Positions 9,707 to 63,980 of a stretch of 64,000 nucleotides of DNA are shown piece after piece (within the stretch, counting starts at the first letter, position 1; every line of letters begins with the position of its first letter). The notes beneath the pieces are model-generated. The model did no database searches, had not been told where the DNA came from, and saw only the letters and a program-made list of their open reading frames with translations. Location: NCBI GenBank assembly GCA_951406725.2, contig OX597820.1, positions 23,870,001-23,934,000 on the forward strand, read 5' to 3'. The DNA comes from Octopus vulgaris (taxonomy: Eukaryota). The translations under genes were made by a program, and so were the position numbers.

Positions 9707-11339
9707 CACATATCACATATATAATTACAAAATTAAACTTGAAATTTTGAAAAAGAAATATATATTGTGTGTCAGTATGTATGTGCGCGCACCCGCCAAT
9801 TTTTTTTCACATTAAATTCAAATGTAATCGTAACCTACACCATCTGAAAGGTATTTGCAGAAAGTTTCATTAAAATATACGCATTTTTCTGAGAGCTATG
9901 TGGGGTAACACAGTCGTCTTGTGTGAATTATCCAAACCTTTTTCCTACCCGAAATAATTTTACAACAAATTGAGATGTAATCGGAACCTACACCAATTTA
10001 TAGGAAATCATATTAAAATATATCCATTTTCCTGTTATGATGGAACAAAGACGGTGGGGTTGACTCACCTGTGCAGGTATGTCTATATTGAGAACCCACT
10101 GGAGTCAGCTTTAGTCTTTTATTGTTGTTGAATTTCTATATCTGACGCTTAGTAGGAATATCAAATTGACTCAGTATTTGACTAGTTACTTTATTTTACT
10201 GATTCTAGAAGCATGATCTCGGCGAAATTTGTACCCAAAATATAAAGCAACATAACTAAGTACTACAAATCCAATGCTGTGTCTGCCATTTCTAAGACTT
10301 GATGTAGTATTTTATCAATTCAGTATTGAACGAATGGTTTAATATTAATCAGCTATGTTATTTCAATTTCAATGAAATACTTTGTACCAAATCCCAAAGG
10401 AATAATGATCAGTTACAAAGTAACGCGTAAAAATGCAAAACAAAATCAGTGATGGGAAAAATTGTGGCAAATAAGAGTAGTCTCCCCTAGATCTAATTCA
10501 TCAGAAATAGTTATCTCCCTTAAAATTAACAGCGAGCCAATAAAGGAGTCTTAAAATGCTTGTTCGACTTGTTAGAAACAGCAATCAAATCCCCCTTAAA
10601 GAGAAACACAAAAAAAAAAAAAAAAAGAAAAAGAAGGAAAAACAGCAGCAATAGAAGCAGCAGTTGTAGTAGTCAGCATATGAACGGGAAGACGACAATA
10701 CAAACCGTTTCAATACCGACGAGACAGCGAGCCTATTGGAAATAGCAGCCAAATCATCCTTAAACCAGGCCCTATATTCTTGAGAAGTGAAGGACATATT
10801 TGTTAATGAAAACAAAGTCCTAGATATGTAATGTTCGAAAGAAGGATGAGGATGGTCATGGCTGGAACACATTTGATCAGAGATTTGTTCAATCGAACAA
10901 GAACGATAACAACTTCACCACCACCACAGCCACCACCACCACCACCACCACCACCACCACCATTGTCATGATAATCATGATCATTATTGTCATCATGGTC
11001 ATGATGATGAATTATTAATTTACTCAGCAAGAAGAACATCAAACCCGTCAAATTGATTGAACTTTGGCTGCCCGCAATGCAGCTTCCTTCTTCCAGATCA
11101 ATAAAAGATGTGCAACACTAGAGATGTTAAACACAATGGCCCATGGTAATGTTTAGTCTAGCCTTCGGTTCGGTTATATATAATTCAGAATGGTCAGTGA
11201 TGTGTTTGTTTATGAACAACATAAACAAATACAGGTGTTTTATTAAGCTAGGTATGATTTGGATCAATCTGTGACTGAAACAAGTTAATTATACAACATA
11301 AATTCTTGATTAATTAAAATCCTCACCACATATCTATTA

Positions 11340-11650
11340 TACTTTGTTTTTGTACCTGGTTTGCAAGATTCTTTATTTGAACTCGTGTGTTGAAGCAAAT
11401 TATGTTGTGGCTGGGGTAGAATCACATTGTCATACTGCCTTATTATTTAACACACTCACCAGTTCGATTTCCACTCATTTATTATTTATATATTTTTCTT
11501 CCAAAAATTTTGTTGTTTCTGCAACCTTATCAATTGATATTAAGGTTGCAAAAACAACGAACATTTTGGAAGTAAAGTATAGATAATAAATGAGTAGAAA
11601 TCGAACCGATGAGTATGCTAGATAGTAAGGCATTATGGCAATATGACTCC
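11340..11650. repeat. Inverted pair of a dispersed ~200-bp repeat (also at 20368-20550 and 24953-25135)
   Basis: AAGGTTGCAAGACGCAACGAAAATTTTAGG...GAATCTTGCAAACCAAATCC family; here head-to-head around 11530. Confidence 0.65.
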
Positions 11651-13007: not shown

Positions 13008-13135
13008 GTTCTGCTTAAAGAATGTACTGCAAATGCAATATTCTTACATATCTGACGTCTGTTTTCATTCCTCCACGTCACTCTGTATTTCATATCTTCT
13101 CTATAGTAACTATTACTCAAAAATTTTCTCGCACC

Positions 13136-13183
13136 GTCTCTGATAAAGGGATATATAAAATATTCCGGAAACAGCTGTAAGAC
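13136..13183 (+). ncRNA. Type I hammerhead ribozyme motif, one core mutation (Penelope-like)
   Basis: GTCT-CTGATAA-stem II(AGGGATAT..ATATTCC)-GAAAC-AGCT-GTA-AGAC; stem I GTCT/AGAC; palindromic loop III. Confidence 0.6.
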
Positions 13184-13254
13184 CTTCTCTTTATAAATGT
13201 TCTGAAAGCTATTCACAGCCTTGGATTTTTTTAATCTCATTCTGTTAATTTATA

Positions 13255-16200
13255 TATATGAGTCTCCCCCAGGATATCGTCTGACATGAATTCTACTAAC
13301 CCGCTATAGAAGTCCGCAGTGGAACTCCAGCCACCAGTACTGCCCGCCCGGGAGAATAGCGCAAGTGCCTGTCGGCACTCTAGCTGCCAATCACTCAGTC
13401 TGGGCCTCCGCTTGATTCAAGGACCTAACTCCCGAAGAGAGTTCAGTTGCGGTAAGAAAAATTTTACGAGCGGTGACCACACTTGCTCACAATTCACGTA
13501 GAGTCAGCGATGCTTAAACCGAAGCGCAAACTTGCGCATCTTCAGTCACGGCATCCCTATCCCACCTTTTAACGGCTTTTGGCAGCAGATAGAGCGCCTT
13601 ACAAGTGGTGCCCTTTTCTACAAAAAGCGGAAGAGGAGACGCTGCAACTTGCTCAACACGAATCGGGGCAAGGCACGACGGTCAGGCGGTAAGTGATAAC
13701 AAATGCTATGTACATCTGCGCCACCTCCTTTCTCCATAGCAGCAATAACGTCCTTCCAGACCAAATCTGGGTTAGGACAGTTACCTTGATTGTGATCTCA
13801 CTCCAATTCTTCTTTACCTGGAGATCCGGACCAAATCAGATCCCTAGCATCTTAACCGGACCTTCCGTCCAACGTCCCACGACGTTATTGGACGGTATCG
13901 ACTTGCCCGTCCAGGTGCTGAGTTGCAAGTCGGATGACTTATCTAGTCAATTTTTGTTTCTGCCACCACTTCGTATCTTCATATGGCGTTTTCTGTACAA
14001 GGTAGTTGCCCTTCATCCAACACGATGATGGTGGTGTTATCCGCGTACGCGGTCGCAGTTCTTCCACTACTTAGATCACGCGAAATGCCCCCTAAAGCCT
14101 CCAACCTTCGCAGTAATAGCTTAAGAGCCAACACATACAAAAGCAGAGACAGGAGCCATCCCTGGCAAACAGAGCACTTAATGTCGAACGGTTTCGAAAA
14201 GAAACCGTTCACCCGGATGATAGGCTCAATATTGCTGTACAAAGCAGCGATCCAGCCCCGAAAAGTCGGGTCCAGCCAGGGCGCCCTGAGAACCGCCGCC
14301 AGGTACCGATGGTCGACTCCATCGAATGCTTTAGACTGGTCTAAATGTACCAGTGCCCCACATTTGCCAGAAATTTTACCCACTCGCTCTAAGGTATAGC
14401 ATATGAGCTGGAGATTGTCATGTATCGTTCTGCCGGAGATGGCGCATGTTTGCGCCTCCCCAACAAGGCTGCCTACGACCCGCGCCAATCTCTTTGTTAG
14501 CACCGTGTTTAACAGAGTTATGGGCCTAAAGTTACTAATAATGTTCCCCTTCGGGTACTTTCTGATCAGCGACACCACTTCCTATTTTGTTGCCAGTTGG
14601 CATAGACGCTGGCCAGTAGGTGCCTGAACAAGTCTGGCATACTTTTGAAAAACTCATATTGCAGACCATCAAGTCCCGACGACTTTTCTCTAGGGCACTC
14701 GCACAGTACTTCCATGACTTCTTTAGCCGTGATCGGTCCTTCACAGCACTTATTCTCTCGTACCGAGAGACGCAGGCCACCAGACAGGAAGTCCCTCTCT
14801 CCTCCCGGACAACTCGGCAAAGTACTTGTAAAAGACCTCACACATCTCATCTTGTCCTTCGATCTAACACTCCTGTTCATCGACCAAAGATCCAATTGTG
14901 ACATTATTGCAATGCTGGGTCTCTACCGTACGGGCCCACCCGGCAACGTTAATTCCCTCGCGGTCTAATGCACGTATTTTAACCCGAATTCTACATCCTT
15001 TGTGTTTGGCTTTGAGGTGTCGACCCAAGGCCGATCTCGCTGTCAAAACTTGGGATGCAGAGTCCAACCTTAACGTCTCTTGTAAGTCCTTAACTAGATC
15101 CCTTTCTACTCTAGTCTTATCTGAAATTAGCTTCTGGCTAATCTAATCGACTCAAGTCGAATGGCTCTTTTGAGGGCAAACCACCACCTGTTATTCAACA
15201 CGGTGCCGGTTAATGCCCTCATGATTAACTCCTTAATCCGACTACGGTATGCCTTACATGACAAAATGGTTTTGCTTATTTTCCAGTAGCCAGATCCCTG
15301 TTTACTTACTCTATGTTCATCCTACACGTCACTAGCTTGTGATCCGTGTAGGAGACCAGAAAAAAACTGTGGACAATTAAAGCTAGACTTATCTCTAGTA
15401 CGAACTATTATTCTATCTAAATAAAACCTGAACGACCCGTTGCCATTATTCCAGGTCAATACTGGGACTCTCAGGTGATCAAGTCTATAACGATCTGCCA
15501 GCTGAAACCGTTTAAGTGGATCGGTAAGGCGTAAGTTTTTCTTCCTGTTAATTGAGCCAACACAATCCTGTCATGCATCCACGATAGCGTTAAAATCTCC
15601 TAACACCATGAGTGTCTTCGATGTCCGAAGAAAATTCTCTAGGTGTCGATAAAAATCAATATGTTTGTTTTTAAGACTCGGCGCATAAACGCCAATCAAC
15701 CTGAAGGCCTTATCTCTGTACTTCAAGTCGAGAACGACCAGCCCACTTTCTGGGCTTACAAGGATTGTACTTGTCTGCAGAGCCAAGCTTTTTCGGAGCA
15801 AGATTACTACCCCTCCTCGGCTCCCGGTTTTGCTAGGAGACATAATTTTCTAATAGTCATTCAGGAGAGCCGAGAAAGCCTGTAGTCTGTCCAGCTTTTT
15901 CTTTGTAGCAACCATCACATCTATGCTATGTGACCTGAGGTCGTTGCAGAAACAAGTCTGTTTCCACTTCGAACTCAGGCCACGCATATTAAAACATCCA
16001 AACGCAAAAAGAGGGTCAGGGACTTACCTGTTTTTAACAGGCGAAGGAACGATCACTCTTAGTGCTATAGAACTCCCCTCCTCCCTCTTCTTCTCTCTTT
16101 CCTTGTCGGTTTCCGGCATCTCACTTAATCTGTGGATTTCCCTCGGTCTTCTATCTTTAAGTTGACTGAATAGTTTCTCTTCTATGCGGGCGTAGTTTAC

Positions 16201-17808
16201 CTCTTTCAAAAGTGTTAATTGATGTTTGTTTACTATTTAGTGTATGTAACTACCTTTGACATCATACTTGATAAACACTGTTCTGTCTGCGGGGGTCGTG
16301 TGGGTAAAGGTGTGGGGTTTAAAGTTATTTTGGTGTGTGATACTGCGTTTTTTTGTTGGGGTTGTGGGTTGGGAGGGAGTTGGGGACACAATATTTCTCT
16401 TCCCCCGTTTCCGGAGGATGACTTGAAATTCCACATCCTGTTCGACGATCTCCATGTCGTCGCTAGGAGGGGGAATTTTTTCCGCATTCCCTGACACTGC
16501 ATTCGATTTTTCCTGCTTCTTTGTTGATTTTTCTTGTTCCTTCGCTGTTTTTTTTTCATTAGTTTTTACTGATCTTTTCTTCTTTTTCTTCTTAATTTCT
16601 TGACTGGGGGTGGGGTGGGGGCGTGCCCCATGTTTGAAGGGTCACATTCTGTGCGCATATGGCCCTTCTGTCCACACTTGAAACAGCATGGCTTCCTCCC
16701 CCCACTTGCACCATAAAGACAACGTCTTCTATTAGCATTCTATCCGGAATTTGTTCGAGATTCGCCGGTGCCGCCTGAATTAATATTTCTTTAGTCTGCC
16801 CTAGCCAATTTTTTTTTTTGGGGGGGGGAGGCAGAGGGGGGTAATCTGTAGCATGGAAATTTTATCTTTCCTTGAGTATTAGAGGGCATCCACCACCCAG
16901 TCGGCGTCAATTTTTCCGGTGGTACTTCTTGTATCTTGATCCGAGTCGTTCTGCGTCCCAATTATGAAGGCAGAAGTACCACCTCTTTTGTTTTTAGTGT
17001 AAGCACTGAGTGCTCCGTCGCTTTTTCCGCTGTCTGAAATCTAACCTCAATTGAGGCGAACTTCCTGCCTCGGGCCACATACGCCACATCCTTCCAAACT
17101 GGTTCGAGGCATTTCTCAGTTTTTTTCTTTTGGAACGTTAGCAATTTTTTTGCTCTCCGCATCATATGTTTTGTTTATGATGGATTTATTTTTGGTTTCT
17201 GTCGTAATATCACTTGGCGGGGACGATTCGAACATCGCTGTCGTCCAAGGACAACATGCCGTAGAACGTTTGATATTCCGAACGCGTTATCTCGAGACTT
17301 TCCTTGTAAATCGCAGTTGCCGCAGCAAAATTTTTCACACTATCATTCATTTGGTTACTTGCATTAATTTCTTCAAGAGTCATTCATTCTTTTATAATTT
17401 CCACGTTTAGATTTGCCATTTTTTCCGAAGAAAAAAAAAACACATGTTCTATAATTGAATTTTTCACAAAGGAGAAAAAGAAGAATTTTTAAAAATGAAT
17501 TTCTCACAAAGGAGAAAAAGATTTTTTTTTAAAAACTACTCGCGGATGAGAATTCAAACGTTCGTGTCCCTTCCCCAGAGGGTGAAGGATACAGTTTACA
17601 AAACAAAAAACTTTCAACAAGTTGCAATCAAAAAACAACGTTCAAATCTTTTCCCCGTAGGGGAAAGCATAGAATTTCAACAACGGCCTGCCAATCAGGT
17701 AACAACTTTCAACAAACAACAAACAGTAGCAATTCAACAATACTTTCATAAATCCAAATTCAAATAGTAACAGCACGGCACACTGCGATTGTCGACTCGA
17801 ACTAACAC
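13255..17808 (-). mobile_element. Degraded Tx1/L1-like LINE (ORF1 with zinc knuckle; ORF2 APE+RT), 3'-truncated
   Basis: ORF1 fragments include CFKCGQKGHMRTEC. EN motifs FNMRGL, IGVYAPS, VLGDFNAIVD. RT motifs NFRPITLLN, LDQSKAFDGVDH, SVCQGWLLS, AYADNTT. Many stops and frameshifts. Confidence 0.9.
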
Positions 17809-19708
17809 TTTTTCTCTAGCCACACAGGGCCAAACATAGAGGGGACAAACAAGGACAGACAATGTGGGGGAAAAATAGAAAAACGAATGAAAAAGGATGG
17901 AATTGAAAAATGAAAAATGAAATGAACGCCACTTGAGCTCACGACATGGCAGTTTCATTTACAACACATTAAATTGCTTTTTTTTCTGTTTTTCTTTTTG
18001 TCTGTTTTTCTTTTTTTCTCCTTCTAAAACATCATCTACACAGTCAAAATACTATGATAACAATTACAGTTCTATGTTGGATCCCATTATACGCAATTAC
18101 ATGCTCTTTTTTTCTTTTTCCTTTTTTTTGGTACACAATTACAAAATTCACTCATTACTGTGGTAATCACTGTTCAAGCTGAGTGAAAACTTCAAGGCTA
18201 CAACCATCTTTCGTTCCTATTATTTCTGGGTAAATTACGTTCAATTTTACCTTAGGCTGTAACGAGTTCAGGTCGACGTCTCTTCCCGTGTTGTAGACAA
18301 CTCTCTTGTACTTGTCTTTTAACTTGTGATAATTCTTCTTCAACATGAGGGAACATCTTACACCCGGGCGTAACCCCTCACAATCCTTCGTGTCCACCTC
18401 TATATCAGAGTTCACCATCTCAACTTCTTTTATCACTGAAACCTTTGCACTATTGTTTAAAACGATAAGGTACCTTTCTGTGGGTGGAGGATTGGGAATT
18501 TGTGGCTCTTGCATGATTGCATTATTTGTGTTCATGTCTGGTGGAGCTGGGAGAGGGCCAGTGTCTGCAGGGGGAGAGGGTTCGGTACTTGGAGTGGGAG
18601 GGGAGGGACGGGAATGGGTTGGGACACCTCCTCGCTGGTTTGCTGCTTTCCTCCTTTCCTCCGCCACCCGCCCACCTCTGTCCATTCTGCCGATCTTTCC
18701 TTTTGCACCCCCTGGTTCCTCTTTTCCATCCCTCTCAGTTCCCGATGTTATGACTGTGGGAGACGCGGTCTCCACTGGATCTTTTTTTGGTCCTTCTACG
18801 GGGGCAGGGGGAACACTTGGACCCCCCCATTACTTCCAACTATCCACAGTTGCAGCACCTCCGCCTCCTGCCCTCCACCACAACCCCAAGCCCCACCTCG
18901 TCTCCCACCGTTATGGTGTTGACCATTTCTTTCATGTCATCTTGGACAACCTGGATTATCATCTCCAGTGTCCGCCCAAGCCAGCTCCTCGCTGGTACCC
19001 TTGTCGCCTGTAGGATTGCAATCCCCTCCTCGAAGCCCATTAAAATTGCCGCCATTATCCAGCTTACGTCCACCTTCGGGGGTATTCCTTCCACCCTTAC
19101 CCTTGATGCACGTCTTCCCAGATAGAAAGGTAGAAGGACTACCTCGTCTCTCTTCATGGAAGTCGTGGAATGATACCTGGCTATCGCCTCGCTGGCAAAC
19201 CGCACTTCCACCGTCACGAACTTCGTCCCTCCGGCAAGGCAGGTAATGTCCCGCCAGATGGGTCTCAGTGCCCCCTCCATTTGTTCCCTTGCCATCATCT
19301 CCATTTTGTTGGGCTTATATGTTCTGTACGTGACACTTCCTTTCTTGATAAATCTTGTGTTGTCGCTGGGGGTGACGCCTTCACTTCGTGTCCCTGTCTC
19401 TTCAACACTTCTTTGCATTTTTGCATTTCCTCCCCGTTGATACAAATTTCCTCCTTCCTATCACCAGCCGCAGCTGCAAAGTCCATCTTCTTTTCCTCCG
19501 TTATTTTGTCAATCCTTTTCAGACCTCCTCTCAGGTCCTCCTCGGACTAGGTCATCGGGAACCAACCAAGACTCTCACAGTCCATCCTTGCTTTCACAGC
19601 ACTTTCCCCTTCAACCGAGAGAAAACGCAAACGGTACCGCCGCAAGGCAGCAAGAACAGAGTGTAGAAAAACACGAAACAAGAGAACAACGTTAATTCAA
19701 ACTAACAC
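17809..19708 (-). mobile_element. ORF1-only (HAL1-like) non-autonomous Tx1-type retrotransposon
   Basis: Disrupted ORF1 (about 19585-18167) is colinear with the neighbouring LINE ORF1 (EVRF..VVLLP.YLGRR..R, CxxCG knuckle, C-terminal VKLNVIYP vs IALRVIVP). It is followed by a ~350-nt U-rich 3' UTR and A-rich tail with no ORF2; AACTAACAC repeated at 17800 and 19700. Confidence 0.8.
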
Positions 19709-20003
19709 ACAAACTTCACCCCGACCGCTACTATTTATAATTGCTCGGTTCAGTCTATTTCTCGCAATAGGGGCGTCGTGACTCTCATCACAATACATAC
19801 ATACATACATACATACATGAGTATATCTAGACATGCAACTATATGCATGAGAATACATACATAAAACAAAATACACAAATCTGCACATATACATACAAAA
19901 ATACTCTGTTGATGTTGAAATACCAATGAAGGAGCCATGGATCTAGGTTAGAAACCGACCCTTTCTCTATTGGCAAGAAATCTTGAAATAAAACTGAATA
20001 ATG

Positions 20004-20045
<42 letters not shown>

Positions 20046-21316
20046 GTATGCAAAATTTAGGCTAGTTAAAGTATGTTTGTGACAAATTTCAACTGCTAAA
20101 AGGCAAATTCACTGCAATTACCGCAGAGAAAATATTTCACTTATGGTAAAAATGTGTAAAAACACCACATTTGTTCAGTGTTGCCATCTCTCAGGAATCC
20201 CAGACACCGATGTTTCAAGTTATTTGGCTCTTATCAATGAAATTTTGCCTCTCTTAGGTGTATCCCATTGATTAGTGCCAAGTAACTTGAAATATGCCTA
20301 AACACTGACATTTCGTTATGTGTCTGTCTGTTCAGACATATATATTCTGTTCAGAGTCAAAACTGTTGAAAAGGTTGCAAGACGCAACGAAAATTTTAGG
20401 AAAATAAAAATAAGAAAAAAGTGGAAATTTTACCGGTGAGTGTGTTAAATAATAAGGCACAAAAAGAAAATGACTCTCCCCAGACACAACAGAATATGCT
20501 TCAACACACGAACTCATATAAAGAATCTTGCAAACCAAATCCAAAAACGAAATATATATGTATATAATTTATATATATATATATACACACACGACGGGCA
20601 TCTTTCAGTTTATGTCTACCAAATCCACCTATAAGTATTTGGTATGCCTGGGGTTATAGTAGAAAACTCTTGCCCAAGGTGCCAAACAGTGAGATTGAAC
20701 CTGAAACCATATGGTTGAGAAACGAACTTAAAACAAAATCATACCTGTTCACAACACTTCTTTTTCTAGGGAAGATACAGTTGATTATATTGACTTAAAG
20801 AATGATAAATACATTTGATTTCAGTGGATGTGAACTGTATGTATCAAAGCACAGGAGGAAAAATATATCATCTTTATGCAAAAAATATCTTTATGCAAAA
20901 AAAACAAAAAACAAAAGCAAACAAACAAACAAACAAACCAGTATTTGCTTTTACAATTTCGGCTACAGTTCTGTGAAGTAGTAAATGTCAAGCCCATTCC
21001 TATTAATTTTGCAATAACACATGGCGACCACCGTTCTCCTACAACATACCCCGGAGACAGACCACATCACGATGACATTTTCAGACATCTGCTTATGATG
21101 TAGATTACGTTTTAGATATTAATCTCATATAATCTACCTTGGTTGTTACAGTGAGGTTGTTTTATCTCATTCTGTATGTCTTCTGTGCTATCAGGTATTT
21201 TGTTATTTTCTATTTTCGGATAGCAAAAACACTCCTCAACATGAGAGCTAAAATATCGGTCGTCATCTTCAAAATAGACTACTCTGGTTGTTTGCATAAG
21301 TGTCACGCTGAAGCTT

Positions 21317-24879: not shown

Positions 24880-24956
<77 letters not shown>

Positions 24957-25149
24957 AGGTTGCAAGACGCAACGAAAATTTTAGGAAAATAAAAATAAGG
25001 AATAAGTGGAAATTTTACCGGTGAGTGTGTTAAATTATAAGGCACAAAAAGAAAATGACTCTCCCCAGACACAACAGAATATGCTTCAATACACGAACTC
25101 ACATAAAGAATCTTGCAGACCAAATCCAAAAACGATATATATATATATA

Positions 25150-25508
25150 TATAAAAATTTAGATAAAACTTAGATATGTTTCGACCAAAGATTCGTCCAG
25201 GCCATGTCTAACTTAATAGCACCACCTGATAGGATTATTCGAATCCTGTTTAAGTAAAGTTTTGTTCAAGTAGTGAGTTCTTGTTGGGTGAGTTGTATCC
25301 AATTATGGGTGGTTTATCTGGTATTCTTTGAAGGAATCTATCCAGACTCCGTTTAAAGTTGATGGGATCCTTTTCCTCTTTGATCTCCCTCGGGACAATG
25401 TTAAATAGGGCAGGGCCTGTTGAGGAAAAGAAATTATGTTGCAGTGTACATGTATGTTGTGATCTTGAATTGGGCAGGGGACGTATGGCTCGTGGTCCCA
25501 GTCTTGTG
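25150..25508 (-). mobile_element. CR1-group LINE 3' fragment
   Basis: HNFFSSTGPALFNIVPREIK...FKRSLDRFLQRIPDKP...NSLLE, typical ORF2 C-terminus, followed by a short 3' UTR. Confidence 0.8.
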
Positions 25509-36097: not shown

Positions 36098-36162
<65 letters not shown>

Positions 36163-36694
36163 ATCTATCTCGCTTCTTGTGGAAAGGATGCGTCCCGATG
36201 GTCAGGCGATCCATTTGCTGTCAACACCCGTTAAAAGGAGGGCTGGGCATGCCGTGGTTGATGATGCGCAGACACGCGCTGAGACTGCGACATCTCTGGC
36301 TCTATGTAGACGTGCAGTGTCCAACAATTTCCGACCTGTGGGCTTGTGTCGAACAACTGCTGTCACGTGTGGGACGAGTCGGTTTATCAGCTGAGTCTAT
36401 CGTTAATATTGTTACGCCTCCCTCCTTCAAACGGGAAGGAAGAGCTATTTTCATCATCCTTTCCATTGACCGAGGTTACTGTGGTCTTTTCCGTAGGCTT
36501 TTCTTTCCACGGGTAAATCTCACCTGTCCTCCCCTTTACACTTCATATTGACATTTACGATCCCTTTTGATCGAAACTCCCCCTTCCTTTTTTTTTTTTT
36601 TTTTTTAAATTTTTTTTTTAAACCTTCAAAAGAAAAGCTCTACCTTGTAATTTGTTCTATCTGTGTGCAGCCCTGTGTGGCTAATAAAGAAACA

Positions 36695-38890: not shown

Positions 38891-39779
38891 CACAAGGTCT
38901 GATCAATGAGTATCCAGACTGCTGTCATAGAAACGAGGCTAAAATACGCAGAGTGAAGCCGCTTGGCACAGATTCACCTCGAACTCTGCTGTGCGTGTGC
39001 ACTAAGTTCTAACAGTCTAACTCACTTCTGCTGTTTACAGCAGTGCTTGGGAGGAAGGTGTGCAGCGTGTGATCGTCGCATTGACCATGGCAGAGAAAAT
39101 TGTCATGGCGATACCTACTCAGAGGGCTACGCAAAGTTGCAGAAAACGTACGGAGAGGAGTGTGTGAGCCGCACACAAGTATACGAGTGGTTCAGACGTT
39201 TCCAAGATGGCCGAAAAATGCCACTATTGCCGAACGTTCTGGGAGACCCGCAAACAGCAGAATTAAGAAAAACATCGCAGATGTGCATGGAGCTGTGAGG
39301 AGAAATCATCGAATTACCACCCGTGAGTTATCAGAGGATGTGCAGATACGTTATGGTTCAGTTCAGTCCATTATCACGGAAGATTTGGATATGAGATGCG
39401 TGTCTGCCAAGTTTGTGCCAAAACTGCTTTCAGCTGACCAAAAAGACACTTGGGTTTCAGTTGCACAAGATCACCTTGATTGTGTCAAGAATTATGAAAA
39501 CCTTTTGAAAACTTTGCGTAGGCCTCTGAGCAGGTATCACCAAGCTTTTGGCAAAACTTGATGCAGATTCTCTGCTCAGCTTTCTCTGCCATGGTCAATG
39601 CGACGATCACACCTTCCTTCTAAGCACTGCTGTTAACAGCGGAAGTGAGCTAGAACATTAAAACTTAGTGCGCATGCACAGCAAAGTTTAAGGTCAATCT
39701 GTGCCAAGCGGATCGACTCTGTGTGCTTTAGCTTTGTTAATACAGCAACAGTTCGGATACTTATTGATCAGACCACGTA
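38891..39779 (+). mobile_element. mariner deletion derivative with ~250-bp inverted arms
   Basis: TIR GGTCTGATCAAT(G/A)AGTATCC; transposase N-terminal HTH region (YGEECVSRTQVYEWFRRF, RSGRP, SAKFVPKLLS); no DDD domain. Confidence 0.9.
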
Positions 39780-41007: not shown

Positions 41008-41241
41008 AGGCGGCGAGCTGGCAGAAACGTTAGCACGCCGGGAGAAATGCTCAGCAGTATTTCGTCTGCCGCTACGTTCTGAGTTCAAATTCCGCCGAGG
41101 TCGACTTTGTCTTTCATCTTTTCGGGGTCGATTAAATGAGTACCAGTTACGCACTGGGGTCGATATAATCGACTTAATCTGTTTGTCTGTCCTTGTTTGT
41201 CCCCTCTGTGTTTAGACCCTTGTGAGCAATAAAGAAATAAG
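41008..41241 (+). mobile_element. SINE family A, full-length monomer
   Basis: AGAATTTCAGAATT flanking duplication; complete head and tail type 1. Confidence 0.9.
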
Positions 41242-46123: not shown

Positions 46124-46760
46124 AAGGCGGCGAGCTGGCAGAAGCGTAGCACGCCGGGCGAAATGCCTAGCGGTATTTCGTCTGCCGTTACGTTCTGTGT
46201 TCAAATTCCGCCGAGGTCGACTTTGCCTTTCATCCTTTCGGGGTCGATTAAATAAGTATCAGTTACGCACTGGGGTCGATGTAATCGACTTAATCCGTTT
46301 GTCTGTCCTTGTTTGTCCCCTCTGTGTTTAGCCCCTTGTGGGTAGTAAAGAAATAGGTATTTCAACTGTTTTTATACGTTCTGAGTTCAAATTCCGCCGG
46401 GGTCGACTTTGCCTTTCATCCTTTTGGGGTCGATAAATTAAGTACCAGTTGCATACTGGGGTCGATGTAATCGACTTAATCCTTTTGTCTGTCCTTATTT
46501 GTCTCCTCCATGTTTAGCCCCTTGTGGGCAATAAATAAATAAGAAACGTTAGCATACCGGGCGAAATGCTTGGCGGTATTCCGTCTTCCGCTAAGTTCTG
46601 AGTTCAAATTCCGTCGAGGTCGACTTTGCCTTTCATATTTTCGGGGTAGATAAATTAAGTATCAGTTACGCACTGGGGTCGATGTAATCGACTTAATCTC
46701 TTTGTTTGTCTTTGTTTGTCCTCTCTATATTTAGTCCCTTATGGGCAATAATGAAATAAG
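46124..46760 (+). mobile_element. SINE family A trimer
   Basis: Three head-to-tail units; AGAAGGCGG repeated at both ends. Confidence 0.9.
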
Positions 46761-52699: not shown

Positions 52700-53930
52700 A
52701 TCTTTTTATCACAGGTTTTGTTGGAACTACCGGAGTCTTGCATGCGCAGCAGGCTTTCTACTTGCAGCCTACGGTGCCAGGCTATTCGTTCTTTTCAGCT
52801 ATCTGATACTTTCCTGATTATTCTGACCGTGCCAAGGAGGCAAACCTTTTGTAACAGTTCTACTAGGCACTCTATTCCAATTTCCTTTATATTTCTCTTG
52901 ATGCCTTCTGACACTGTTCTTATGGGCCCAACAGTAATTGGCACTATCTTTACCATTTTCGTTTTCCATAGCAGGGCCATTTCGTACTTAAGAGGGTTGT
53001 ATTTATCTATTTTTTTTGCCTTCCTTCTTAACTATTCGAGGGTCAAAGGGGCATGCAACATCAACTATATTGCACATGTGGTGCATCTTGTCGACCACCA
53101 CTAGGTTCAGTCTATGTTCCAACACCTGATATGTTTGGATTGGGAAATCCCAGAGGATTTTGCTAGTCTCCGACTCCGCTACTCTCTGCGGTTTGTGTTC
53201 ATACCACATCTTGCCTCTCTCTAGCCCCCACTTTTCGTACAGTTTCCAGTGTAGCACTTACGCTACCTGATCGTGTCGCCACAACTTGTAATGGTTTTGG
53301 GCAAGTCTAAGGCATTCGTTCGCGATATGGCCAATGGTTTCATCCACTCTATTACAGATGCGGCACAGCGGAGACACTTGCTCATTCCTAAGGTTGACCT
53401 TCCAGTTCGTGGCCAAAGCTTGGTCTTGCGTTGCCAGTATAGTGCTCTCAGTCTCTCTGTTTTAGTGTTCCTTTCTTCAGCCATTACCACCTGTGTTTTC
53501 CAGCAATTTCTGTTGTGGTTACATGAAATTGATTGTGTAGTCTCTTCTTGCGTAATTGTTCTTCATGTCCATTTTGTACTTCTTTTGTTTTCCCTTTTTT
53601 CTCTGCTTTCAATACTCCCTCGTTTCCAATTGACACTAGCAAGGTTTCCTTGCTTTGGGCTAAGTATCGTATTCCGCTCTCGAGTTCGATACGTACGCAG
53701 TCTTCCACACTTATCAGTCCTCTTCCTCTATTTGCTCTTTTCATGTATAGGCGATCAGTTCTGCACGTGGATGATGGGTTCCATGCATTGTTAGGAGCTT
53801 TCTTGACTCCCTTTATCCCATCTGCTTTATCTCCTCCTCTGTCCACTTCAGGATTCCAGCACCATATCGAACTACTGCGACTGCGCTCGAGTTTATTGCC
53901 GAAGGTCAAGTCTGTCTTAGATTTTCCTGT
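52700..53930 (-). mobile_element. 5'-truncated R4/Dong-clade (RLE) non-LTR retrotransposon
   Basis: AINSSAVAVVRYGAGILKW, DRLYMKRANRGRGLISVED, CRIC..ETIGHIANEC..RHD, KILWDFPIQT, IVDVACPFD, LQKVCLLGT; 3' end on a (GAT)n tract. Confidence 0.9.
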
Positions 53931-54189
53931 TTCTTTAACGTTAAGGAAACAAAGAGTTTCCCGGTTTGATCAATTTCTATCGTCGATTTATTCCCCGCTG
54001 TGTGGAATGGTAGTCCTCCAACCCCTCAGATATATTATGCAATGCAATAGTAAACGTAGGTACCGGTCGATTATTTTCAATGGGCTGGCCGAGCCGATTC
54101 ACCAATGTCAACACATTCTTCTATTTGTACCTCACCTTCTGATACAGTGGAAACGAAATCCGGTTGGCGCGTGCGTAAACCTTTACTCT

Positions 54190-62280: not shown

Positions 62281-63034
62281 ATTATTTTATTAAATTGTAG
62301 GTTAAAGTGTAAATGGATTGGTAGGCTACACGCTTTTAAAATTGTACCGATTATCTAGTGTATATTTTTGTATAGGAGTGAGGTAGGTAAATAGTAATAA
62401 TGGACATCAAGCCGGAAGGGTAAATGTCTGAGGGTGGGTGGGTCGGAATAGGAATAACTAACGTAGAGGATTATTTGTTGGTTGGAAGTATTTTAAAGTT
62501 GTTATTGTTTAACCCCAGATCAGCACTCAATACCAGAGCTGAAGACTTTCCTGAAAGAGGGAGACCTGTCTCGTCGAAAACAGTAGAGAAGTAGGGATCG
62601 AAACCGGACGTGGTTCCTCCTGATGATGTCTTTAGCCACTGGATCCTATAAAGTAGTTGTTGAGGTAATGAACCACGAAACGTGGTTGGAATTCCTCAGG
62701 GTGTGGTGGAGTGATCGACAGTCTATACATTGACACAACTTTTATTTTGTTGTCAAGCGGTCTTTTGCCACTTTTGTATCTGTCTTTTGACGACGGTTGT
62801 CACTCTGAGAGATATTGTAATATTCTGAAGTCGTCGACAGAATAGTTCTATCTAGCACTGTACGACTCCCAGTGATATAATTACTATATCAGCATAGATA
62901 CGACTATCAACACAATCTACACGTACTCTCGACCTTCTGACCTTCTCGACCTTCCACTGTCGACCGGTTACTGGTCTATTTATAATGGCTGGCTACTACC
63001 ACTTTTTACCGGGAGAGGCGTACAGTTTCACTAT

Positions 63035-63577: not shown

Positions 63578-63980
63578 ATAATCCTTTCTATTATAGGCAC
63601 AAGGCCTGAAATTGGGGAAGGTGGATAGTCAATTACATCGACCCCAGTACTCAACTGGTACTTAATTTATCGACCCCGAAAGGATGAAAGGTAAAGTCGA
63701 CCTCGGAAGAATTTGAACGTAGCGGCAGACGAAATACCGCTAAGTATTACGCATGGCATGCTAACGATTCTTTCCTAATCTAGGCACAAAGCCCGAAATT
63801 TTTGGGGAGGGGGCCAGTCGATTAGATCGACCCCAGTACGCAACTGGTACTTAATTTATCGCCCACGAAAGGATGAAAGGCAAAGTCGACCTCGGCAGAA
63901 TTTGAACTCAGAACGTAAAGACAGACGAAATACGGCTACGCATTTCGCCCGGCATGCTAACGTTTCTGCCAGCTTGCCTT
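63578..63980 (-). mobile_element. SINE family A dimer (tail type 2)
   Basis: Two units; CTCATATGCA(A/G)ATATAAT flanking duplication. Confidence 0.85.

Follow-up and report, generated by a model that had tools for sequence, protein, structure and literature searches.

A bipartite ORF1-only retroelement copy in Octopus vulgaris with a 3' tail shared with a SINE and a LINE fragment

Layout of unit A and its ORF1

The subject of this study is a retroelement copy of 1.9 kb, named here unit A, which lies in a repeat-rich stretch of 64,000 nucleotides (nt) from Octopus vulgaris (assembly GCA_951406725.2, contig OX597820.1, positions 23,870,001 to 23,934,000), referred to below as the window, and which reads from 19708 to 17809 on the minus strand. 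It contains the first open reading frame (ORF1) of a long interspersed element (LINE) and a LINE-type 3' end, and its tail directly adjoins a decayed LINE, here LINE B. A is a real, unusual element, and the best-supported new point is the link between its tail and a short interspersed element (SINE). An earlier note on this DNA, made from the letters alone, had proposed that A belongs to an independent ORF1-only family mobilised in trans. The features of A, of B and of a further LINE fragment, here fragment C, are as follows (UTR, untranslated region; pLDDT, predicted local distance difference test; E, E-value).

17809..19708, minus strand: unit A, bipartite ORF1-only retroelement copy with 5' UTR, broken ORF1, 3' UTR and LINE-type tail
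19691..19708, minus strand: boundary repeat, first copy, 18 nt; conserved 5' end or target-site duplication
18167..19486, minus strand: ORF1 of A, from the ATG of MDFAAA at 19486 to the stop at 18169-18167
18843..19349, minus strand: two domains of RNA-recognition motif (RRM) fold in the ORF1 of A; model with pLDDT 88, Foldseek
18800..18860, minus strand: degenerate zinc knuckle in the ORF1 of A; CxxC, then a stop, no readable His
18233..18472, minus strand: C-terminal domain of the ORF1 of A, common to octopod ORF1 relatives; profile E 3e-4
17809..18166, minus strand: 3' UTR of A, 358 nt, A-rich, then pyrimidine-rich, then tail
17809..17862, minus strand: 3' tail of A, common to the SINE (35-42/47 nt) and to C (identical 14-mer, 17830-17817); small hairpin predicted
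17791..17808, minus strand: boundary repeat, second copy, 18 nt, at the A|B junction
13249..17808, minus strand: LINE B, decayed element of the putative L1/Tx1 group; ORF1 at about 17419-16024, ORF2 (APE endonuclease and reverse transcriptase) from about 16002
36153..36692, plus strand: fragment C, C-terminal piece of the ORF2 of a related LINE family, 5'-truncated and internally deleted, with 3' UTR and shared tail

The earlier description of a whole ORF1 homolog holds for its extent, with the FAAA block, two RRMs and a C-terminal domain all present, and fails for its integrity: the frame changes near 19365-19345 and again near 18830-18800, and a stop at 18842-18840 lies inside the knuckle. 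With two frameshifts and one stop, copy A is dead. An in-frame ATG further upstream, at 19585, is ended by a stop at 19549. A profile of 30 ORF1 relatives matches the N-terminal block of A at 19519-19361 (E 1e-4) and its core at 19418-18780 (E 1e-71). The top Foldseek match of the tandem-RRM model is IMP3 RRM12 (E 9e-5), and every one of the 7 matches at E<=0.001 is an RRM-pair or multi-RRM protein. No Pfam match to the mammalian ORF1p of Transposase_22 type, which comprises a coiled coil, one RRM and a C-terminal domain, was obtained with two pieces of A and 6 relatives; A has two RRMs and a knuckle instead. Of the knuckle previously read in A, the CxxC is present and the remainder is degenerate; in two ORF1 relatives, P0012 and P0016, the knuckle scores above the zf-CCHC cut-off.

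A C-terminal profile built from 8 relatives has its best match in the window at 18472-18233 of A and meets B at the expected place with an E of 1.2 and at rank 4 only, so that the statement that A and the LINE share this motif is right in position and weak in score. The domain, of about 80 amino acids (aa), is shared by the octopod ORF1 relatives P0003, P0031, P0045, P0012 and P0121, several of them seemingly full-length, and has no Pfam match in these; its model in A is weak (pLDDT 62), with no fold match at E<=0.001. An exhaustive protein search gave 319 matches at E<=0.001, none longer than 623 aa among the best 150 listed, and with 319 clusters at 50% identity the lineage shows great diversity. 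The named relatives come from Octopus bimaculoides, O. sinensis, O. vulgaris and Argonauta hians. Word-index protein searches with the RRM piece (longer proteins only) and the C-terminal piece gave no match, the C-terminal piece reached only scores below 0.9 against the Atlas, and no ORF1 relatives of A were found in viral contigs.

The ORF1 proteins of the two neighbours are strongly diverged, as had been noted: in the first RRM, 31 of 78 aa (40%) and 131 of 234 nt are identical. A weakly resolved tree of 78 columns, with 54 rows comprising A, B and those 52 of 150 relatives that aligned over at least 68 residues, separates A from B as well. Given this identity and the separate placement, A did not arise from B by deletion.

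The reported lack of any endonuclease or reverse transcriptase trace in A was confirmed, in that 0 of 107 ORF2 relatives match A at E<=0.05 and the ORF2 profile is silent over A, its matches in the window being confined to B and to 36153-36470 in C. In B, ORF2 begins about 22 nt past the ORF1 stop and reaches profile position 952 of 1144, the 3' end being lost at about 13250. It contains an RVT_1 match (E 9e-14), and the ORF2 relatives have PF03372, PF00078 and PF13966. The nearest solved protein of the ORF2 relative P0156 is human L1 ORF2p (E 9e-63, vs E 1e-27 for R2); the relative P0223 found no relatives in metagenome contigs. An ORF2 with an APE endonuclease, a reverse transcriptase and a C-terminal zinc domain, closest to L1, marks the L1/Tx1 group, to which B and C can be assigned; they are about 63-66% identical in their common ORF2 piece. 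The label Tx1 is more provisional and is based on the type I ORF1 with RRM and knuckle (PMC5203782) and on an octopus annotation that lists L1-Tx1. Together, these comparisons support an ORF1-only bipartite anatomy for A and a lineage that appears independent of B.

The 3' tail shared with a SINE

The end of A had been described as an A-rich tail. An A-rich stretch is indeed part of the 3' UTR, and the end itself is a specific 3' tail common to the SINE and to the second LINE fragment, C. The SINE copies of the window are listed here.

41009..41239, plus strand: SINE copy, example, with the shared tail, a head that is A-box-like and B-box-like by eye, and a flanking 14-nt direct repeat
46126..46758, plus strand: SINE array, three units head-to-tail
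33428-33013, 34484-34069, 28881-28651 and about 9020-8843, minus strand: other SINE copies

The last 47 nt of A match 10 other sites in the window, all of which are 3' ends of one SINE-like repeat, with an identity of 74-89%; at 17862 the likeness to the SINE ends abruptly. The 14-mer GCCCTGTGTGGCTA occurs at the ends of A and C only (2 matches vs 0.01 expected, with 0 of 100 shuffles containing 2), and a profile of the 10 SINE tails alone finds A with an E of 1e-10 and C with an E of 1e-6, with nothing further below E 1. The 14-mer shared with C and the tail profile thus indicate a true LINE 3' end for A and a bipartite make-up. In this it resembles the known bipartite class of HAL1, HeT-A and Ag-Sponge, of which A shows the ORF1 homology, the absence of ORF2 and the LINE 3' end. 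A search for a 31-nt tail pattern gave 0 matches each in viral, metagenome and prokaryote genome contigs.

The tail could also have been acquired second-hand. In that case A would be a chimera, in which the 5' half of a LINE was cut after ORF1 and a 5'-truncated SINE remnant or a template-switch addition supplied the end, so that it never moved as a unit. Its last 47 nt are nearer to the SINE (35-42/47) than to C (29/44), the SINE is the most abundant sequence in the contig comparison over 13030-20000 described below, and the sharp end of the likeness at 17862 would suit such an origin. The two parts of the tail differ in their affinities: upstream, A is SINE-like (26-29/30, vs 15/27 for C), whereas in the terminal hairpin part A agrees with C in 14 of 17 positions and with the 10 SINE copies in 9-13 of 17, and the exact loop of C is present in the hairpin of A and in no SINE copy. 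Since other contigs moreover cover the UTR of A beyond the part shared with the SINE, at 17879, we consider a chimera very improbable.

The LINE lineage of A is likely to be the source of the SINE tail. Two units at 63580-63980 (minus strand) have the same SINE head and body and different tails; the tail is accordingly a swappable module, and the different tails suggest a second LINE partner of the SINE. A LINE-derived tail and a flanking direct repeat, both features of SINEs derived from transfer RNA (tRNA), are found in this SINE, the former through the tail profile and the latter as the 14-nt repeat. A-box and B-box motifs are the promoter boxes of RNA polymerase III. In the head of the SINE these motifs were recognised by eye, and ARAGORN found 0 tRNA genes and Rfam 0 matches on one copy. 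Arrays of the SINE are frequent and run head-to-tail, 4 of the 5 joints shown resuming at about the same internal position. In the O. vulgaris assembly, SINEs are given as 11.6% (PMC13282606).

Other copies and the origin of the ORF1-only form

The explanation that we favour, with a probability of roughly 55%, is that A is a dead member of a non-autonomous family within the L1/Tx1 group that has ORF1 only and would have been copied in trans by the ORF2p of a relative via the shared tail. It starts from what is observed, namely a two-part layout that lacks ORF2, a tail common to A, the ORF2-bearing C and the SINE, the other ORF1 copies and the decay of A. A single loss of the entire ORF2 in an ancestor would have been followed by its spread as a family; A-type RNA would have been transcribed from the 5' UTR or from an upstream promoter and may have been packaged by its own ORF1p, as proposed for HeT-A, HAL1 and Ag-Sponge (PMC5786205). 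The ORF2p of a helper would then bind the 3' end of about 50 nt and prime reverse transcription at the target. The SINE, with a tail taken from the LINE lineage of A, would be served by this machinery as well. Of the proposal in the earlier note, the ORF1-only anatomy and the independent lineage stood up; A also has relatives of 81-90% identity and a true LINE 3' end, and the spread of a family in trans is what we infer.

Contigs of four public sequencing runs were aligned to 13030-20000 at 80% likeness, with 17974-18133 skipped as repeat. What is said below of listed pieces, joints and sites refers to 12 of 73 joints, 12 of 97 pieces and a selected 40 of 1,131 sites. Among the listed pieces, the ORF1 of A is covered by at least 10 contig pieces from 4 runs with 81-90% identity, and in one run, X1, 7-11 contigs are found at many of the listed ORF1 sites. 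Copies resembling B show 83-90% identity, and from the similar divergence it follows that A and B could have been active together. At the 15 listed ORF1 sites, most other contigs agree against A, the stop included.

The main competitor, which we regard as possible and clearly less probable, is that A is a single fossil of an autonomous L1/Tx1-group family other than B, which lost its whole ORF2 in a one-off deletion, either while inserting or later, whereas other copies keep theirs. A count of 80 L1-Tx1 consensus families for O. vulgaris (PMC13282606) makes divergent autonomous neighbours of this kind expected. LINE copies are usually 5'-truncated, so that tails outnumber 5' parts. The summed contig depth at 17879, in the UTR beyond the part shared with the SINE, is 423 in X1 (vs 435-747 at the listed ORF1 sites), 76 in X8 (vs 24-76) and 68 in X9 (vs 16-56). 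Such depth is not a copy number; in these three runs A-type tails then appear about as frequent as A-type ORF1s and not in excess of them, unlike the usual truncation pattern, which speaks against the deletion. For B in X1, the ORF2 bins reach 1,040-58,000, vs 115-332 in most ORF1-side bins, with the proviso that ORF2 bins attract other families. A dip in depth at 17923-18155 overlies the skipped repeat zone (17974-18133) and was not used.

The joint between ORF1 and UTR bears on the same choice. No ORF2 remnant is present on either side of it in A, while in B ORF2 follows the ORF1 stop so closely, which favours the ORF1-only form. The breakpoints of a deletion would have to miss ORF1 and the tail and yet take all of ORF2, which happens in about 0.2-0.4% of random two-breakpoint deletions in a sketch with uniform breakpoints and assumed parameters, an estimate weakened by the fact that the locus was selected for a special look. 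One X1 contig links 17933 to 19330 and would thus be another copy with an A-type UTR and an A-type ORF1, joints at 80% likeness being often false.

Several observations weigh against a family copied in trans, besides the limits of the contig comparison just given. Among the listed contigs, none crosses the ORF1 stop of A into the UTR, so that a second ORF1-UTR joint was not read, and several leave the alignment near the end of ORF1: record 4 of X1 and record 22 of X8 stop at 18175, record 31 of X9 departs at 18155 with 75 unread letters and record 23 of X8 at 18241 with 312 unread letters, both of which could be ORF2. Internal deletions are common among the fossils here, with two in about 500 nt of C and the 3' end of B lost. 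The 15 listed differences of A fall on the codon positions as 6/5/4 (P 0.82), which is decay with no sign of selection after the loss of ORF2; as most other contigs agree against A at these sites, A descends by neutral decay from a source with several copies. The hairpin is predicted in 5 of 5 folded sequences with an energy that is not significant in any of them (z -0.3 to -1.4), and the pairwise alignment of the UTRs of A and C is modest on its own, being reached by 5 of 300 shuffles. No target-site duplication around A other than the 18-nt repeat was found, and B, with its tail lost, is no more than a putative helper of A. If A is a one-off deletion after all, the tail finding alone remains.

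None of the listed runs holding such copies is recorded as RNA; run X11, guessed to be RNA, has a piece of the ORF1 of A with 90% identity, which is no evidence of expression. As a separate observation, 6 of the 8 listed differences between A and other copies at 18973-19026 are A-to-G on the sense strand of the element (within the selected 40 of 1,131 sites), and X1 shows 160 A-to-G places over 13030-20000, while the mirror change is seen at 75 (P between 3e-5 and 5e-4 according to the baseline chosen). The excess may reflect RNA editing fixed at insertion or a transcription-linked mutation bias.

Named examples of bipartite non-autonomous LINEs that retain ORF1 belong to three clades, Jockey (with HeT-A), L1 (with HAL1) and CR1 (with Ag-Sponge) (PMC5786205). 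Mammalian HAL1, which is non-autonomous, encodes ORF1p only and arose repeatedly from L1-clade LINEs (PMC5753468, PMC5786205), is one parallel. However, the ORF1 of A is of the RRM and zinc-knuckle type (type I, PMC5203782) and not of the mammalian Transposase_22 type, its host is a cephalopod, and its end is a sequence-specific tail that a SINE has too, in contrast to mammalian L1, for which recognition of poly(A) is described (PMC3747384); the ORF1-only form of A was read in one copy. A therefore falls outside a strict definition of HAL1 by its ORF1 type and would, by analogy, work like HAL1, HeT-A and Ag-Sponge if it does belong to a family. HeT-A and Ag-Sponge are likewise bipartite LINEs retaining ORF1 (PMC5786205), and HeT-A forms head-to-tail arrays with TART and TAHRE (PMC5537684), but they belong to other LINE clades, A|B is a single junction and not a telomeric array, and a long shared 3' region is not comparable between A and B, since the end of B is lost.

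A Tx1-clade helper that moves non-autonomous partners is described with Tx1-Mar and SINEU of crocodilians, and Keno, Kibi and Koshi are target-specific Tx1 families; microsatellite targets are known there as well (PMC4494074). There the tie between SINEU and Tx1 is a shared target, and no LINE with the 3' end of SINEU-1 was found by that source, whereas here the tie is a shared tail. Common-tail pairs of SINEs and LINEs are known from bivalves (with CR1-Zenon, L2, Nimb and CR1), from maize (ZmSINE2 with LINE1-1_ZM) and from Chlamydomonas (SINEX-3 with L1-1_CR). The bivalve tails of 35-61 nt with 72-95% identity (PMC11481361) span the values for A and its SINE. In contrast to the present case, the L1-clade partners with shared tails named in PMC3747384 come from plants and algae, none of them Tx1. 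A full-text literature search, in a collection lacking most subscription papers, turned up neither a Tx1 element reduced to ORF1 nor a Tx1 LINE named as sharing its tail with an octopus SINE; such papers, Repbase, Dfam or the O. vulgaris Zenodo library may already contain the family.

A Tx1-group example from a mollusc, if true, would mean that the ORF1-only strategy has arisen again, beyond Jockey, L1 and CR1 (PMC5786205), and would offer a natural test of whether a retained ORF1p helps the RNA to capture the ORF2p of a helper. The three-way tail suggests which LINE lineage could partner an abundant SINE of octopus; it is also relevant to the question, left open in PMC3747384, of whether L1-group LINEs ancestrally recognised their 3' end strictly. 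As an observation beside the tail, C sits in a (TATC)n microsatellite on both sides, in a window dense in microsatellites; this possible microsatellite target, comparable to those of Kibi and Koshi, may be the setting known for target-specific Tx1 families (PMC4494074).

The A|B junction and the upstream flank

The starts of A (19708) and B (17808), both on the minus strand, are the only 2 places in the window with the sequence GTGTTAGTT. The tail of A (ending in GAGAAAAA) directly adjoins the second GTGTTAGTT, so that the precise joining of the tail to the LINE 5' end, noticed earlier, is correct. The accompanying remark that both units start alike needs extending: GTGTTAGTT is present at both, but with 9 nt it is too short, the match spanning 18 nt with 14 of 18 positions equal. 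All 4 mismatches are transitions, and the chance of such a match is about 0.002 over 300 positions. Beyond the 18 nt, the 5' UTRs of A and B have nothing in common (227 of 300 shuffles score as high).

The 18-nt repeat may be either a conserved terminus or a target duplication. If it is a conserved terminus, B landed in the A-rich tail of A or the polymerase jumped templates; if it is a target duplication, both elements struck one host site or A struck the start of B. There is about an even chance that conserved 5' termini were combined with either an insertion of B into the A-rich tail of A or a jump of the polymerase from B RNA to A RNA. It is less probable that the two elements inserted one after the other into a common target, with 18 nt duplicated, and an element A aiming at the 5' end of B is more doubtful still. 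The duplication flanking the 41009 SINE copy is A-rich and starts with AGAA, and thus landing in a tail fits better than a GTGTTAG target.

The earlier suggestion that A possibly targets the 5' end of its helper gained no direct support: it is based on a single junction, the tail of B is missing, and insertion of the LINE into the tail of A, a template jump or a shared target fit equally well. In its strong form, which is nested within the favoured family explanation, the ORF1-only A would insert specifically at the 5' end of the helper B and duplicate its first 18 nt, either as a HeT-A/TART-like array or as a parasite aiming at its helper. The repeat lies exactly where a target duplication would be expected, the likeness of the 5' UTRs ends with it, and target specificity is frequent among Tx1 families, a few of which insert into other transposons; tandem insertions of the Tx1-moved SINEU-3 sandwich a target duplication (PMC4494074). 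On the other hand, the SINE that shares the tail has a duplication unlike GTGTTAG, and the same picture would arise if both elements aimed at a host sequence or merely start alike. We therefore consider the strong form unlikely.

A wider reading, doubtful as a whole, would be an octopod three-tier Tx1 system on one 3' tail, comprising autonomous LINEs, the ORF1-only family and the SINE. The ORF1-only family would in that case be old and under selection, docking at a shared 18-nt target or at the start of the helper, and the SINE tail would come from the ORF1-only lineage or its parent. If true, ORF1-only parasites would be known from a fourth LINE clade, and strict 3'-end recognition from an L1-group LINE of an animal.

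A candidate for such a host sequence lies upstream of A.

19731..19739, minus strand: TATA-like TATAAATAG, starting 31 nt upstream of the boundary repeat of A, within the 80 nt that follow an (ATAC)n microsatellite

This motif may fit a promoter-like host target. No second example of such a target was found; the other TATAAATAG site in the window is at 62984. The 80-nt stretch between (ATAC)n and A (19709-19790, minus strand) could be a host promoter, a piece of a long terminal repeat (LTR) or an element 5' end. An LTR family was rejected as an explanation, the site at 62984 being not significantly alike (46 of 200 shuffles). Over 17000-21000, Rfam gave 6 weak matches, all under the gathering score.

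Other repeats and open frames in the window were recorded in passing. Just upstream of A, 19790-20010 is a very high-copy repeat, the second-highest depth bin, which ends in (CA)n on the plus strand; by eye it contains a degenerate hammerhead-like stretch as in Penelope-type repeats, with no such Rfam match. At the far end of B, a high-copy repeat at 13030-13260, with a depth of 148,012 in X1, truncates its ORF2 at about 13250. The open frames 39085-39561 (plus strand) and 53484-53969 (minus strand) resemble by eye a Mariner-type transposase piece and a C-terminal piece of a non-LTR reverse transcriptase, respectively, with no Pfam match at E<=0.5. A dispersed repeat of 200 nt lies at 20366-20566 and 24952-25151 (plus strand) and at 11338-11533 (minus strand), the first two copies being 96% identical.

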